From: a virus
Taxonomy: Duplodnaviria > Heunggongvirae > Uroviricota > Caudoviricetes
Strand: one strand, 5' to 3'
IMG/VR virus record: IMGVR_UViG_2667528155_000011
Location: 1 to 4,545 of that record
Length of the DNA stretch: 4,545 bases
The notes beneath the pieces are model-generated. The model worked only from the letters and a program-made list of their open reading frames with translations, was not told where the DNA came from and made no database searches. Shown piece by piece: positions 3-4,545 of this stretch (positions are counted from its first letter, which is position 1; the number at the start of each line of letters is the position of its first letter). The translations under genes were made by a program, and so were the position numbers.

Positions 3-209
3 CGGTTTTAAACCACGTCGCTGATTATCTGACGCGTAGGCATAACGGAAATGGGCAATATCCGTCTCCAGTGCATTCCCCGCATCAGAGATAAGCGGCA
101 CACCAGAATAAGGATGCCGCCCACCAAACAAGACGTGAAAAATCAGCAACGCAAGGCCAAAATTATCGTGATTTTCTGTGCGTTCAAAGCCGACAAATGA
201 CGACAACCC
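3..209 (-). other. ORF fragment running off the left window edge, unknown function; weak resemblance to the C-lobe of a Ser/Thr protein kinase
   Basis: Minus-strand frame is open for ~69 codons from 209 to the window edge (...HDNFGLALLIFHVLFGGRHPYSGVPLISDAGNALETDIAHFRYAYASDNQRRGLKP). No convincing start codon or RBS. The stretch DNFGLALLIFHVLFGGRHPYSG loosely resembles kinase subdomain IX (D-x-W-S-x-G...L-x-G-x-x-P-F). Not in the supplied ORF track because it is edge-truncated. Confidence 0.2.
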
Positions 210-225
210 CCAGCTAGGCTGGGGG
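207..225. other. GC-rich hairpin (8-bp stem cccccagc / gctggggg, 3-nt loop), possibly a terminator-like structure at the IS200 left end
   Basis: Perfect inverted repeat 207-214 / 218-225 seen directly. Minus-strand flank is moderately T-rich (ttgtcgtcatttgtcggctttg); plus-strand flank is ttccggaaagc. IS200 is known to carry a terminator hairpin near its left end, but I cannot confirm this is it. Confidence 0.3.
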
Positions 226-263
226 TTCCGGAAAGCTTTCAGCTTTGAGGCCAGTTATTAAAA

Positions 264-333
264 CCCCTTTTGATTTGTTAAAACACCTTGCGGTCTGGCA
301 ACTGCAAGTGTCAAACAAGAAATCAAAAGGGGG
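264..333 (+). promoter_or_regulatory. Imperfect long inverted repeat pairing the tnpA Shine-Dalgarno region (IS200-type translational-control stem-loop)
   Basis: Left arm ccccttttgatttgtt (264-279) is complementary to aacaa(ga)aatcaaaagggg (314-333). The right arm contains the SD aaggggg (327-333), 5 nt before the tnpA ATG at 339. Matches the known IS200 arrangement in which a stem-loop occludes the RBS. Confidence 0.5.
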
Positions 334-338
334 TCCCA

Positions 339-527
339 ATGGGGAACGAAAAGAGCTTAGCGCACACACGATGGAACTGTAAATATCACATAGTTTTTGC
401 GCCAAAATACCGAAGACAAGTGTTCTACAGAGAGAAGCGTAGAGCAACAGGCAGTATTTTGAGAAAGCTGTGTGAGTGGAAAAGTGTACAGATTCTGGAA
501 GCTGAATACTGTGCAGATCATATCCAT
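339..527 (+). pseudogene. tnpA: IS200-family transposase TnpA, N-terminal 63 codons only
   Basis: Translation MGNEKSLAHTRWNCKYHIVFAPKYRRQVFYREKRRATGSILRKLCEWKSVQILEAEYCADHIH matches remembered IS200/IS1541 TnpA through the HxH motif. It then diverges (NNIYHHRGYGQKSG*) and lacks the catalytic-Tyr C-terminal region. The track ORF 288..572 starts upstream, but the SD-positioned ATG is at 339. Confidence 0.6.
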
Positions 528-894
528 AACAACATTTACCATCATCGCGGATATGGCCAAAAAAGTGGCTGAAGATGATGCAGAAGTCTCATCCATAACC
601 AAGCCGGGTGCAGAAATTCATGAGTCTTAGCCCACCTCTGGTGATATTAAACGTGCGCAGGGGGCATAACTGATTCTCGCCAATGGTATGAATCTGGAAT
701 TATGGTTCCAGCGCTTTTGCCAGCATCTCAATGAGGTTCCAGAGGTGATTGTCTCTTCGGGTGTGACACCGGTAGGGCTCACCAAAGGGCCCTATGAGGG
801 CAAACCTACCCCCCAATGCCTGGATGTCGCCAGATAACGCTCTGATTTACATTGTTAATATTCGTGATGCTTTAATAAAATACGATCCGGAAAA

Positions 895-969
895 TGAACT
901 GCCCGGGAATCCTGGAGACTAAACTCCCTGAGAAAGAGGTAAACAGGATGACTAAAAATACTCGTTTTC
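895..969 (+). mobile_element. IS3-family (IS629/IS1203-like) left terminus: terminal inverted repeat plus first 7 codons of orfA
   Basis: tgaactgcccgggaatcctggagactaaactccctgagaaagaggtaaacagg followed by ATG ACT AAA AAT ACT CGT TTT (MTKNTRF) at 948-968. This matches the remembered IS629-type IRL and OrfA N-terminus. Similarity ends at the nnn (970-972); downstream sequence is not IS629-like. Confidence 0.55.
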
Positions 970-1022
970 NNNCGCAAATTTCTCGCCCCTGACGATAGCC
1001 CGCCAGCCGCCTCGCTTCTCGC

Positions 1023-1412
1023 TCAATGGCGATACGCTGTGATGGCGGGATCTGCGGCCACAGCGGTTGCATGGTCACCCCGGTGGGATCGCGATAATCC
1101 ACCGCGTGAATCTTNNNTCTGCNGCAATNCCANNGCGNCCTGGCTATTGGGGGAAAAGTCTTTCAAACCAAGCTGTTTACAGTAAGCATCCCACCACCGG
1201 GAAAGAATCTGGTAGCGTCCAGCAGCCGTTGATTTAAGTTTTGGGTTTAGCGTGACAAGTTTGCGAGGATGATCGGAGTAATCAGTGAATAGCTCACCAC
1301 CTACAATAACGTCGTAGCCGTGATTGCGGGTTGGCTGTCGCCCGTTATCCGTTCCTTCTGACCACGCCAACATATCGAGGAAAGCTTTACGCTGAGGATT
1401 AAGATTTAGCAT
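1023..1412 (-). CDS. R: Phage endolysin, lambda R-type lytic transglycosylase; 3' end uncertain
   Basis: First ~100 residues ([91 protein letters not shown]...) are near-identical to remembered lambda R, including the catalytic-Glu motif AWSEGTD. ATG at 1412 is preceded by GGGGTG. Region 1115-1140 contains ambiguous bases and the C-terminal 29 residues diverge from lambda R; the ORF is 129 aa versus 158 in lambda. Confidence 0.75.
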
Positions 1413-1716
1413 TTTTCACCCCTGTCAGTCGTTCCCAGAAGTATGTCAGTGCAACCGAACCCATCGCACCACTAATCCCCGCTGTCGCGAGAATCATGTA
1501 AATACTGAATCCACTTTCGATACTGTTCAGGCCACCAATAACACCGGTGAATCCCGACACCACTATCTGAGCCAAAGCATTTATCCAGCTCCACGTTGCT
1601 TTACTCTGCTTCACATCTATCAGGTAGCGGACCAGACCGCCCCAACCTGCGATGATCAGCAAAACGAGCCAGAACGCTCCGGCAAGGCTCTCTTTTTCGT
1701 GCATATGAATAGCCAA
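1399..1716 (-). CDS. Putative holin (three hydrophobic segments, charged C-terminus), possible dual start TTG 1716 / ATG 1704
   Basis: 101-105 aa ORF directly upstream of and overlapping the endolysin start by 14 nt. Hydrophobic stretches AGAFWLVLLIIAGWGGLV, WINALAQIVVSGFTGVIGGL and FSIYMILATAGISGAMGSVALTYF, followed by the basic tail [11 protein letters not shown]. Family assignment is by position and topology, not by recognised sequence. Confidence 0.6.
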   Translation of the reverse strand: MAIHMHEKESLAGAFWLVLLIIAGWGGLVRYLIDVKQSKATWSWINALAQIVVSGFTGVIGGLNSIESGFSIYMILATAGISGAMGSVALTYFWERLTGVKNAKS

Positions 1717-1818
1717 TGTTTCGCCGCCGACAAAAGGCCGGGACGTTAAATGTCAGAAATCAGGCTCACGGGGTAATTTAACGACAAAGCACGGAGTTGA
1801 TGCTCCCCGCAAGCCTGG

Positions 1819-1844
1819 AATAAAAAAGCCAGCATGTAGCTGGC
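1819..1844 (-). terminator. Rho-independent terminator (tR'-like) in the Q-to-holin control region
   Basis: Minus strand reads GCCAGC-tacat-GCTGGC followed by TTTTTTATT (stem 1844..1828, U-tract 1827..1819). Confidence 0.6.
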
Positions 1845-1920
1845 AACAGAGGGTTAAGCAATATCAACTCAACAGCTGAAGACACCCTGGCTGGGGTACG
1901 TTGGAAGGATACTCACCGCC

Positions 1921-1958
1921 CAGAAACAGAAAAGCCCAAGGCTTTAAACCTCGGGCTT
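1921..1958 (-). terminator. Candidate hairpin plus U-rich tail (upstream member of a possible tandem terminator pair, or a leader RNA structure)
   Basis: Minus strand: aaagcc-ttg-ggcttt (or the longer aagccc...gggctt stem) followed by ttctgtttctg. Weaker than the 1819-1844 terminator. Confidence 0.35.
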
Positions 1959-2013
1959 GAATTTGGATTACTGCCAGTGCGTACAACATTGGCAAAATAT
2001 CAGATTTACATAA

Positions 2014-2042
2014 AATATATGATTTTTAATCCAGTTTTGCAA
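2014..2042 (-). promoter_or_regulatory. Candidate late promoter (PR'-like) overlapping the 3' end of the Q-position gene
   Basis: Minus strand: -35 TTGCAA (2042..2037), 17-bp spacer, -10 TATATT (2019..2014), predicted start ~2007. A -10-like GATATT and TTGCCA lie in the initial transcribed region (2001..1990), a possible sigma-dependent pause element as in lambdoid late promoters. An alternative weaker promoter is TTGCCA (1995..1990) / AGTAAT (1972..1967). Hexamer matching only. Confidence 0.35.
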
Positions 2043-2715
2043 TATCTTGCTGTGAAAATGTGGTCTTTTGTTTTGAACGTGTTTTCGTTAAAAGCAATAA
2101 AGCTTGGCTATCAAGCTGTAGAAAAATGTGCTTCATTGCAACCCAGCGTTCAGTAAATGTCTCAGACCAGTTTTTTGATGTCACTCCCACCAGTGATGCC
2201 AACTCCTGGTATTCATAGGTCTTACGCCCTGCCAGCTCGTTCTTCACATCCTGTGCCGCCAGCCAGATCAACTTCTTCAAACGTTCCAGTGTCTTACCTG
2301 CAATTTTCCTGGTACCCAACAGAGTCTTAAACTCGCTCCATGCCCACTGCGTTATGGTGACCTGATGTTCCCAGCGAACACTTTCGCTGTAACTCCACAG
2401 CAACCACGCTTTCTGATGTTCTTCGAGAGACAGAACCGCGCGGCGCCATGATGATGTTGAGAACTCGATCGGACTGACCAGGGCAATGGATGAGCCTTTC
2501 GCCCGTGACTGCTTACCGGGTATCGGCGGATTATCCAGCGTTATTAACCTGCCGGTCACTTCATCCAGAATGCGCGGTTTCTTTCGTTTGTATGTACCGG
2601 TATCAAATTGCGCATGCTCCTGCCAGGCCACCAACTGCCCTTTCGTCGCACCACTCAGATCGGCGGTGGCCACCATGAGCTGCTCGCGAACAAACTGTAA
2701 ATATTGGGTATTCAT
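2026..2715 (-). CDS. Putative late-gene antiterminator Q-like protein (assigned by synteny; family not recognised)
   Basis: 229-aa ORF with AGGAG 9 nt upstream of the ATG at 2715, coupled to ylcG by an ATGA overlap. It sits where quuD/Q sits in DLP12-like prophages, just upstream of the promoter/terminator region and lysis genes. It contains no cysteine, so it is not a zinc-finger Q-lambda type. Trp-rich, with a possible HTH near the C-terminus (YQELASLVGVTSKNWSETF). Confidence 0.45.
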   Translation of the reverse strand: MNTQYLQFVREQLMVATADLSGATKGQLVAWQEHAQFDTGTYKRKKPRILDEVTGRLITLDNPPIPGKQSRAKGSSIALVSPIEFSTSSWRRAVLSLEEHQKAWLLWSYSESVRWEHQVTITQWAWSEFKTLLGTRKIAGKTLERLKKLIWLAAQDVKNELAGRKTYEYQELASLVGVTSKNWSETFTERWVAMKHIFLQLDSQALLLLTKTRSKQKTTFSQQDIAKLD

Positions 2716-2852
2716 GCGGCCGCTCCTTTCAGTGTTTTGGCGTAATTTTTCAGTATTCGGTAATCAGTCACGACAGAACCGGAAAACCGGTACAACCGCA
2801 GGCGCATCCAGCGAAGGCGGAGGTGTTCTGTGATATAAGATTCAAACGTCAT
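2712..2852 (-). CDS. ylcG: Small 46-aa protein, YlcG-like (DLP12 ylcG position)
   Basis: ATG at 2852..2850 overlaps the rusA stop; its TGA overlaps the next ATG. Translation [46 protein letters not shown]. Size and position match ylcG downstream of rusA. Below the supplied ORF track's length cutoff. Confidence 0.5.
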
Positions 2853-3211
2853 TCGCCCTCCAGTTCTGTAATGGTCAGCTCCAGCTTCCCGCCTTTAACG
2901 ATCGGCATCTTCACAACGCGGTAATCAACAACCTGCGCATCATCCAGCCAGAAACCTGCTTTAGTAAGTGCGTCAAAAGCGGCTTTTTGCAGATTATCCA
3001 GGTCACGGCGACGGCGATCCGGCATGTGGCACTCAATGCGGATTTTCACTGGCATAGCCAGGCCGATATCCAGCATGGAGCCTTTGATGATTCGGGCGAC
3101 GTTATCGCGGTATGCTTGCCCCTCTGCGCTGATGTGCGTGCGCCCGCGATTATGGCGGTAATAGCGATTATTGCTCGGAGGCCAGGGTAATGTGATGCTG
3201 TAGGTATTCAC
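2849..3211 (-). CDS. rusA: Crossover junction endodeoxyribonuclease RusA (Holliday junction resolvase)
   Basis: 120 aa, [45 protein letters not shown]...[40 protein letters not shown]..., near-identical to remembered E. coli RusA including the acidic catalytic cluster. GTG start at 3211 overlaps the ybcO stop (GTGA). Confidence 0.9.
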
Positions 3212-3498
3212 GCCTTAATAACCCCCTCTTTCAGCCAGATAACCTGTGTTCTCGCCATACCTTCCAGCGCGCATTCTTTTGCATATCCAGCGTCAACAAA
3301 ATGCGTGCGACGGTCGATCTCGTCGTGACAGGCAGAACATGCAATGGTGGCAATAAGGTCTGGCAGTTTAATACCGGTGCCGCACAATCCAGCCAGCCGG
3401 ATATGTGCCAGTACAGACGTTTCAGAATTGCCATTACATACGCCAGGGATTCTTACCTGGCATTCCCGACCACGCGCTGCTTTTCTCAAATCAGCCAT
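3208..3498 (-). CDS. ybcO: YbcO-like prophage protein (DUF1364, putative nuclease with Cys cluster)
   Basis: 96 aa from the ATG at 3498, [96 protein letters not shown], with AGGAGG 6 nt upstream. The track's longer ORF begins at a TTG at 3537 with no RBS. Matches remembered DLP12 YbcO. Confidence 0.8.
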
Positions 3499-3661
3499 GA
3501 CTCCTCCTTGCTGCCAGTCGCAACCATTTTTTATCAACCAGGCTGGCGGTATATCCGAGCAGTGTTGGTATTTCGGATGGCTTCAGCTCAGGCTTACGCT
3601 TACGACGATTTGGTACTCTGTAGATGTGTCCGTTCATGACACGAATAAGCGGTGTAGCCAT
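3491..3661 (-). CDS. ninE: NinE-family protein (56 aa)
   Basis: ATG 3661..3659 overlaps the ybcN TAA (TAATG) and has AGGAGG upstream. Translation [56 protein letters not shown]. Its 3' end overlaps the ybcO start by 8 nt. Below the supplied ORF track's length cutoff. Confidence 0.75.
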   Translation of the reverse strand: MATPLIRVMNGHIYRVPNRRKRKPELKPSEIPTLLGYTASLVDKKWLRLAARRSHG

Positions 3662-4116
3662 TACGCCTCCTGCTTGTCGCGCAGCAGCTGGAACTCGCAG
3701 CTCTGCGGAATAGTCAGGTTGCAGCCAATATTCATCGCCCAGGCTTCAACCTTACACAGGAAGACATACATCTCTCCGGTATCAAGATCGGAGGTATGGC
3801 GTAACGACTGGATAGTAGTGATTTCGCCGGTTACGACATCAACCAGGTCCTTGGTTTCATAACCGAGGTATGTGTGTTTGAGAGCATCTTTTACCCATGC
3901 TGCGGTAGCGAACGATTTCCCCCTGCTGATGAGGTATTCACTGATTTCGCTGTACCACATATGGCTGAGTGCATTCTGGGAAAGACTGCGTTTCTCTCGC
4001 CACGGTTTAAGCACCATGCGAAAGCATTTGCCTTCCTCCAGATAAGGCTGGATCTGCTGGCCGATAGCGGTGAAGTTGCCGCGATGTAATTTGATGCCGT
4101 CTTGTGAGAGGTTCAC
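3661..4116 (-). CDS. ybcN: YbcN-like prophage protein (DLP12 ybcN family, reported DNA base-flipping protein; occupies the ninB position)
   Basis: 151 aa, [154 protein letters not shown] start at 4116 with GGAGGTG 5 nt upstream. Near-identical to remembered K-12 YbcN. Confidence 0.8.
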
Positions 4117-4237
4117 GCTTCACCTCCGCAGAGCTCAAACGCTAGATGCAAAGAATTGCAGGTGCATTTCTGCATCTGTGAAGGGAGAAGAGAGTTTGGA
4201 TTGTATGTGCGCATAAACGTCCCCGTTTAGCGCAGAA

Positions 4238-4266
4238 GTCACCGGAGTTGTTCAGGCTCCGGTGAC
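4238..4266. repeat. Perfect 10-bp inverted repeat (gtcaccggag / ctccggtgac) with 9-nt loop, between the ybcN start and the IS2 end
   Basis: Seen directly at 4238-4247 and 4257-4266. No strong U-tract on either strand. Could be a tR2-like terminator remnant upstream of the nin genes or a protein-binding palindrome. Confidence 0.4.
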
Positions 4267-4288
4267 ATAATTATGCCGTGTTGATTTC

Positions 4289-4545
4289 TAGACTGGCCCC
4301 CTGAATCTCCAGACAACCAGTATCACTTAAATAAGTGATAGTCTTAATACTAGTTTTTAGACTAGTCATTGGAGAACAGATGATTGATGTCTTAGGGCCG
4401 GAGAAACGCAGACGGCGTACCACACAGGAAAAGATCGCAATTGTTCAGCAGAGCTTTGAACCGGGGATGACGGTCTCCCTCGTTGCCCGGCAACATGGTG
4501 TAGCAGCCAGCCAGTTATTTCTCTGGCGTAAGCAATACCAGGAAG
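4289..4545 (+). mobile_element. IS2 left end (IRL onward), continuing past the right window edge
   Basis: tagactggccccctgaatctccagacaaccagtatcacttaaataagtgatagtcttaatactagtttttagactagtcattggagaacag matches the remembered IS2 left terminus and is followed by the insC start. Confidence 0.85.
4380..4545 (+). CDS. insC: IS2 transposase OrfA (InsC), N-terminal part, 3' partial at window edge
   Basis: ATG at 4380 with GGAG 6 nt upstream. Translation [55 protein letters not shown] matches remembered IS2 InsC. Confidence 0.85.

Follow-up and report, generated by a model that had tools for sequence, protein, structure and literature searches.

Does an IS2 element that lies upstream of rusA in a DLP12-type prophage switch on this Holliday junction resolvase gene, or does it leave the gene as it was or cut it off from transcription? 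Studies of E. coli K-12 have established that rusA is normally quiescent and that it is activated by the IS2 and IS10 insertions rus-1 and rus-2 (PMC1636454, PMC10956419, PMC3533792), as a first-pass annotation of the DNA analyzed here had stated. Both rus-1 (IS2) and rus-2 (IS10) are ruv suppressors in K-12 according to papers that cite the original reports (Mandal 1993 and Mahdi 1996, as cited in PMC1636454, PMC3533792, and PMC4118853), and a study from the Sharples laboratory (Curtis et al. 2014; PMC4118853) states that the rus insertions supply a promoter "upstream of this operon." As to where rus-1 and rus-2 lie and which way they point, the open-access literature gives general statements and no coordinates. 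The DNA analyzed here (the window, a stretch of 4,545 nucleotides) resembles rus-1 in that an IS2 element has inserted upstream of rusA, beside the DLP12 ybcN-to-rusA module. It differs in that rus-1 is defined by its phenotype, i.e., ruv suppression via transcription of rusA, and was selected in the laboratory, whereas the window copy is known from sequence alone and resides in a natural or draft genome.

The minus strand of the window from 1118 to 4288 was found to be the late-regulation and nin-like part of a DLP12-type lambdoid prophage, with the gene order ylcH-ybcN-ninE-ybcO-rusA-ylcG-Q followed by a holin gene and by a truncated lysozyme gene that lacks its last 182 bp (Table 1). All of the module reading frames are intact and agree in order and length with the annotations of K-12 MG1655 and E. 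coli 7CC, and ybcM lies outside the window. The ylcH stop codon overlaps the ybcN start, and the ylcH ATG is at 4214 to 4212. RusA retains the acidic motifs RRRDLDN and LDDAQ, and YbcN has been described as an Orf-family recombination mediator or "DNA base-flipping protein" (PMC4118853). Since the module is intact, nothing else was obviously altered beside the IS2 insertion. Q is not the 127-amino-acid QuuD of K-12, with which it shares only 45 identities in 229 positions.

E. coli 7CC was 99.8% identical to the window over positions 1118 to 4288, and homology was lost exactly after 4288; 7CC is an empty-site relative. The corresponding spacer of K-12 is likewise uninterrupted and is identical to that of 7CC. 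The insertion point falls within the 116-bp spacer between ybcM and ylcH, 42 bp beyond the stop codon of ybcM and 74 bp upstream of the ATG of ylcH; the IS2 end is 172 bp from the ybcN GTG (4116) and, with ylcH-ybcN-ninE-ybcO in between, 1077 bp upstream of where rusA starts. The first-pass annotation had placed an IS2 left end about 170 bp upstream of the ybcN module, in agreement with the 172 bp and with the 256/257 identity to IS2 found here. It had also described the flank upstream of ybcN as intergenic; the distance stands, but ylcH, on the minus strand, occupies part of the 172 bp, so that the insertion point is properly given as 74 bp upstream of the ylcH ATG. The 172-bp flank is present in 2,824 of 5,426 complete E. 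coli genomes, and the exact window junction (flank plus IS2 left end) was found in none of the 5,426. Exact junction patterns likewise gave no match in the genome contig and metagenome contig collections, and an exact look-up of the YbcN protein in contigs returned IS-free DLP12 prophages only. The spacer that served as the IS2 target is AT-rich and ordinary, and the joint coincides exactly with the outermost nucleotide of IS2.

Table 1. Features of the window (positions are those of the window) and sites of IS2 copies inspected at the same locus in other E. coli (positions relative to ybcN or to module genes)
Feature	Position	Strand or orientation	Basis or remark
yegI segment	1-206		100% identical to core chromosome
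pAA-type enteroaggregative plasmid segment	202-969		99.9-100% identical
NNN; single N	970-972 and 1115-1117; single N at 1123, 1129, 1133-1134, and 1138		
hyfI fragment, 142 bp	973-1114		100% identical
Late antiterminator Q, 229-aa type (PF06323)	2026-2715	-	7CC annotation, Pfam match
ylcG	2712-2852	-	46/46 identical to 7CC, 33/46 to K-12
rusA, Holliday junction resolvase, intact, GTG start	2849-3211	-	111/120 identical to K-12, 120/120 to 7CC
ybcO (DUF1364, putative nuclease)	3208-3498	-	92/96 identical to K-12; annotated in 7CC and K-12
ninE	3491-3661	-	56/56 identical to K-12; Pfam NinE in neighboring contigs
ybcN, GTG start	3661-4116	-	Annotated in 7CC and K-12; 146/151 identical to K-12
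ylcH, 33 codons	4113-4214	-	K-12 b4588; 32/33 identical to K-12, 33/33 to 7CC
Predicted leader hairpin 2	4208-4234	-	RNA fold; encloses the ylcH Shine-Dalgarno-like GGGGA and AUG
Predicted leader hairpin 1, 10-bp stem GTCACCGGAG / CTCCGGTGAC	4238-4266	-	RNA fold
-10-like CATAAT, left from the split TTGATT-17-CATAAT	4270-4275	-	IS2 parts CATAAT from TTGATT
Promoter-like GGGCCA-18-CATAAT, 8/12, across the joint	CATAAT at 4270-4275	-	Permissive consensus scan
Presumed 5-bp target site ATTTC	4284-4288	None	Inferred from 5-bp duplications of 11 comparator IS2 copies
IS2 (IS3 family), first 257 bp	4289-4545	+	Window stops inside the element
IRL, 42 bp, TAGACTGG...TTAA	4289-4330	+	Read from sequence; layout per PMC3299598 and PMC3219604
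Promoter-like TTAAGA-17-GATACT, 8/12, inside IRL	4347 to 4319	Facing module	Permissive consensus scan
PIRL, weak extended -10 of the IS2 transposase genes, TGATAGTCT	4336-4344	+	Reads away from ybcN
orfA (insA) of IS2, first 55 codons	4380-4545	+	ATG 91 bp inward of the IS2 end, matching annotated IS2 copies
IS2 of S21/H14	146 bp before ybcN, in hairpin 1	Divergent, as in window	
IS2 of EC21Z-078	20 bp before ybcN, in ylcH	Divergent, as in window	
IS2 of pCE-O153H30-A and of YZ_2_1	Inside ybcN	Divergent, as in window	
IS2 of TOK-001	ninE/ybcO	Divergent, as in window	
IS2 of DXMF6-3R	91 bp before ybcN	Co-directional	
IS2 of EV36 (K-12/K1 hybrid)	376 bp before ybcN, in ybcM	Co-directional	Duplication CTCAC
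IS2 of P13-6	495 bp before ybcN	Co-directional	
IS2 of EC05	532 bp before ybcN	Co-directional	
IS2 of STEC308	564 bp before ybcN	Co-directional	
IS2 of S1-JOR-02-A	Inside ybcN	Co-directional	

Positions 4289 to 4545 are the left end of canonical IS2. When aligned with the 1331-bp IS2 of E. coli HB101, this segment showed a sole mismatch, at 4320 (G in the window, A in HB101), and BLAST returned thousands of matches annotated as "IS3-like element IS2 family transposase" at 98 to 99% identity. In five IS2 copies at unrelated loci, homology to the window started at TAGACTGG (4289) and ran inward only. Some BLAST matches reached 12 to 22 bp past the IS2 end; since the flanks of the five aligned copies are unrelated, this extension was set aside as chance similarity. 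The IRL is identical in 41 of 42 positions to that of the HB101/K-12 copy, its tip TAGACT is the inward -10 element of the minicircle junction promoter Pjunc (layout per PMC3299598 and PMC3219604), and a TAAATAA OrfA site lies at the offset expected for an IS2 left end when compared with PMC3299598. Moreover, TGATAGTCT, the only match to TGnTAnnnT on either strand of 4117 to 4545, lies 48 to 56 positions from the IS2 end, in agreement with the published position of PIRL (PMC3299598). With orfA read from the plus strand and the module from the minus strand, the two are transcribed divergently. There is no N at the junction, which lies within 3.4 kb of uninterrupted sequence. As a separate observation, an IS2 copy of HB101 (yidX::IS2) is flanked by ATTTC (positions 1514 to 1518 and 2850 to 2854 of locus L020), the same pentamer as at 4284 to 4288 in the window; the sharing probably reflects coincidence or a mild preference for T-rich pentamers as targets.

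If IS2 were to drive the module from this position, an outward promoter at the left end or a hybrid promoter across the joint would be expected. The published IS2 left-end promoters, PIRL and the TAGACT -10 element of Pjunc, both read inward (PMC3219604, PMC3299598), and the "outwardly reading -35 motif" of IS2 is placed "in the right end," i.e., in the IRR (PMC3219604). It is the IRR -35 element that IS3-family fusion promoters use, including those formed by IS2 at ampC, acrEF, and neoR (PMC9330008). As cited in that paper (for ampC, Jaurin and Normark 1983), these cases are like the window in that IS2 lies in or beside the promoter of a silent or weakly expressed gene; they differ in that, by the general account of IS3-family fusion promoters in that review, the outward IRR -35 element lies 17 bp from a resident -10 element (PMC9330008), whereas in the window the IRL abuts the resident CATAAT, and the arrangement of an IRR -35 element 16 to 18 bp upstream of a resident -10 element is absent there. 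Promoter and terminator scans, which register consensus matches only and are weak evidence, gave no promoter site of at least 9/12 on either strand of 3900 to 4545, and the whole 1331-bp IS2 yielded neither a promoter-like site of at least 9/12 nor an intrinsic terminator on either strand. When the scan was made permissive, two 8/12 motifs directed toward the module appeared. Upstream of ylcH, the empty locus has a single site of at least 9/12, TTGATT-17-CATAAT (9/12), which faces ylcH in 7CC (L001, 9181 to 9153, minus strand) and has the same sequence in K-12; if the insertion was simple, TTGATT has been displaced from CATAAT by 1.3 kb. The hexamers that IS2 places 16 to 18 bp upstream of CATAAT (GCCAGT, GGCCAG, and GGGCCA) have at most 3/6 matches to TTGACA, and a hybrid promoter at the joint was rejected on this ground. 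The IS10 promoter pOUT reportedly activates adjacent genes, in work attributed to Simons et al. in 1983 and to Ciampi et al. in 1982. It is an outward promoter at the transposase-proximal end of its element, which is the geometry that the IS2 of the window would need, but pOUT is documented for IS10 and no counterpart is documented or predicted at the IRL of IS2.

The RNA that would lead into the module from the joint (4200 to 4288, minus strand) is predicted to be strongly folded, at -32.7 kcal/mol (z = -5.8; 0 of 200 shuffled sequences as stable). The fold comprises two strong hairpins directly downstream of CATAAT, the first of which is possibly the ybcM terminator, though its U tract is poor. 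No Rfam family was matched in a search with 4200 to 4288. Together, the spacer hairpins could provide both a terminator for ybcM and translational or attenuation control of the string of genes from ylcH to rusA.

For comparison, the 1077-bp flank (3212 to 4288) joined to full IS2 in each orientation was used as a query against the 5,426 complete E. coli genomes. Within about 1.7 kb, IS2 was co-directional (IRR toward the module) in 23 genomes and divergent, as in the window, in 12 genomes. All 11 of the inspected loci carried a complete, 1331-bp IS2 with perfect 5-bp duplications, at 11 different sites within about 1.2 kb, from the 3' part of ybcM to ninE/ybcO. The window site, 172 bp before ybcN with ATTTC as the presumed target, differs from all 11 of these, and the right end of its IS2 lies outside the window. 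A control flank in the same prophage, ylcI-ybcW-ybcV, gave 7 plus 2 genomes at the same threshold, with many further matches at 74 to 75% coverage near the paralogous Qin region. The ybcM-ybcO stretch is a recurrent IS2 target, roughly 4-fold above this one control in raw genome counts with kinship ignored. An orientation bias was considered as a sign of selection and discarded, as the 23 versus 12 genomes came down to about six independent sites each way among the inspected loci, with no clear bias. EV36, a laboratory strain, has derivatives, KMS2001 and KMS2005, of the same lineage carrying IS2 inside ybcM (L023).

These comparisons make it probable, as far as the sequence allows a judgment, that the effect of IS2 on the module is neutral to polar and not activating. 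Since the element points away from the module, a routine insertion that is neutral or mildly blocking, and not an on-switch for rusA, appears the most likely reading. A simple copy-and-paste insertion would have taken place, with duplication of ATTTC expected and with ybcM presumably on the far side. First, the -35-like TTGATT is parted from the -10-like CATAAT, so that the only sigma-70-like site upstream of ylcH is split; because K-12 retains this site whole and yet keeps rusA quiescent, it would be at best a weak promoter, and little expression was likely lost. Second, any transcript that comes from the upstream side, be it from ybcLM or from the early pR operon (seen in intact relatives), would run through 1.3 kb of IS2, antisense and untranslated, before reaching the module. 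Rho typically terminates RNA of this kind (Rho polarity), and polar IS2 insertions are known from classical work. We propose that transcripts through IS2, being antisense and untranslated, would be prone to termination of this kind. Third, the IS2 left end would supply no documented or predicted promoter toward the module. The first-pass annotation had left two outcomes side by side, namely, that IS2 cuts the module off from read-through or that it supplies outward or hybrid promoter activity. The first, polar outcome is the one favored here; the second fared poorly, with orfA diverging from the module, the IRL promoters reading inward, the outward -35 element residing in the IRR, and no site of at least 9/12 detected.

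The simple insertion makes a prediction about the far side of the element, where the IS2 right end, ...GGGGCAAATCCA, should be followed by ATTTC and then by CCAAAATCAAAATCG...ybcM. The expected right junction would thus read ...GGGGCAAATCCA-ATTTC-CCAAAATCAAAATCGATAGAATTGC... into ybcM. As the right end lies outside the window, IS2 might instead mark a rearrangement breakpoint (adjacent deletion, inversion, or IS2-IS2 recombination) that severs the module from ybcM and the early region. The source genome is apparently rich in IS elements, the other junctions of the window are missing from the 5,426 complete E. coli genomes, and the left junction of IS2 is missing from complete genomes, genome contigs, and metagenome contigs alike. 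Nevertheless, 11 of 11 comparator IS2 copies nearby are simple insertions with duplications, the joint is at the exact terminal nucleotide of the element, and its target is ordinary AT-rich DNA; a breakpoint is unlikely. The first-pass annotation had gone further in this direction by stating that IS2 "replaced" early-operon sequence beyond 4289, a claim that finds no support in the neighboring IS2 copies, all 11 of which are complete and have perfect 5-bp duplications. IS2 moves by insertion, with no replacement of target DNA.

A natural rus-1-like allele, in which an outward or hybrid promoter of IS2 or the relief of a block switches on ylcH-ybcN-ninE-ybcO-rusA, was considered as well. Upstream insertions of IS2 and IS10 do turn rusA on in K-12, the place given for the rus promoters, "upstream of this operon" (PMC4118853), is the general location of the window IS2, and IS2 is about 4 times more common near ybcM-ybcO than in the control stretch (35 versus 9 genomes). 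Weak 8/12 motifs do face the module, and IS3-family ends commonly carry outward promoters (PMC12095673): that study estimated that at least 26% of IS3-family elements have them, and of five IS3-family ends for which no outward promoter was predicted, two were nonetheless able to drive a reporter, the IS2 left end not being among those tested. In the window, however, the adjoining end is the IRL, whose documented promoters are directed into the element, and the outward -35 element on record belongs to the IRR; a promoter-less IRL end thus faces the module, although rus-1 could have the same orientation. No site of at least 9/12 reads toward the module, and the one native promoter-like site is left weaker, not stronger, by the insertion. 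Furthermore, the neighboring IS2 copies point either way, and those inside ybcN and at ninE/ybcO destroy genes of the module. We consider a rus-1-like allele at this site quite unlikely.

The IS2-rich ybcM-ybcO stretch may be a hot region or a selected region. Both orientations occur and some insertions fall inside module genes, so that tolerance or target preference fits at least as well as selection. In STEC306 to STEC308, the IS2 right end makes a Pjunc-like hybrid, TGGAAA-17-TATGAT (-10 element 5/6), directed toward ylcH-ybcN-rusA from 564 bp upstream (L026, 1770), and EC05 has a weaker hybrid of the junction-promoter type (AATCAT; L027, 1738). The Pjunc-like hybrid was rejected as a shared feature of the six co-directional insertions; because it occurs only in STEC308 and, weakly, in EC05, it is not a general mechanism. 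The STEC308 and EC05 insertions are, on these predicted hybrids, more plausible than the window copy as natural activators of rusA. A broader proposal, that ybcM-ybcO is a selected landing zone for IS2 in which wild rus-1-like alleles wake YbcN and RusA and in which the IS2 left end carries an unrecognized outward promoter like pOUT, so that even the divergent orientation of the window copy would activate, strikes us as distinctly improbable.

Returning to the reading preferred here, the window IS2 appears to mark a new site for an event of a kind already known to recur, with a probably neutral or polar outcome, and it is like any IS2 insertion in nonessential prophage DNA. In its present form the finding is of little consequence: a cryptic prophage holds one more IS2, at a site new among 5,426 complete E. 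coli genomes. For annotation, it matters that ylcH occupies the supposed intergenic region and that the orientation of IS2 speaks against activation. Were the window copy or the co-directional copies to raise RusA and YbcN, natural isolates would have a Holliday junction resolvase in reserve, which would bear on DNA damage tolerance and on recombination with incoming lambdoid phages; under rus-1-like activation, the strain would have a second Holliday junction resolvase together with an Orf-type recombination mediator.

The left quarter of the window is of another kind. Positions 1 to 1140 form a chain of unrelated E. coli segments, none of the complete E. coli genomes covers at least 80% of positions 1 to 1120 in one place, and matches to positions 1 to 215 end at the yegI boundary (206). 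The window looks like a scaffolded or chimeric draft, and its long-range context is to that extent unreliable. That the DLP12 and IS2 segments were likewise joined by the assembler and lie apart in the genome is very improbable, for although the window chains unrelated segments (yegI, pAA type, hyfI piece, and prophage) with N-marked joints, there is no N within 3.1 kb of the IS2 junction, the two segments meet precisely where IS2 begins, a point that a chance fusion would seldom strike, and 257 bp of IS2 follow uninterrupted and without an N.

Several minor observations concern the prophage part. Relative to K-12, a mosaic boundary is apparent, with 92 to 100% protein identity from ylcH to rusA, 33/46 identities for ylcG, and an unrelated Q. 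The K-12 porin gene nmpC (with IS5), which lies between Q and the lysis genes, is missing from the window, where the Q-holin gap is about 300 bp. Positions 1931 to 2010 (minus strand) gave a subthreshold Rfam match to isrJ (30.4 bits versus a gathering score of 37; E = 0.009) within this 300-bp gap, in which a lambdoid late promoter, qut, and a short terminated leader are expected.

Others concern the left quarter. Positions 205 to 329 (plus strand) matched Rfam STnc490, the Hfq-binding RNA region of the IS200 5' end, at 140.5 bits versus a gathering score of 56, and the boundary between yegI and IS200 coincides with the IS200 terminal hairpin. Downstream, at 339 to 572 (plus strand), lies a truncated IS200/IS605 TnpA reading frame of 77 amino acids (Y1_Tnp). 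The exact truncated TnpA protein was present in 771 blocks of the contig collection, the contigs found were pAA plasmids, and in most of the contigs read it lay near a gene for an AraC-family regulator and a dispersin gene, which suggests that these neighbors are aggR and aap of pAA plasmids. Finally, at about 894 to 969 (plus strand), there is an IS3-family left end of the IS629/IS1203 type (TGAACTGCCCGGGAATCCTGGAGAC..., ATG at 948) that is cut by the NNN at 970; in O157:H7 genomes, an IS1203-type element likewise adjoins the corresponding prophage region.
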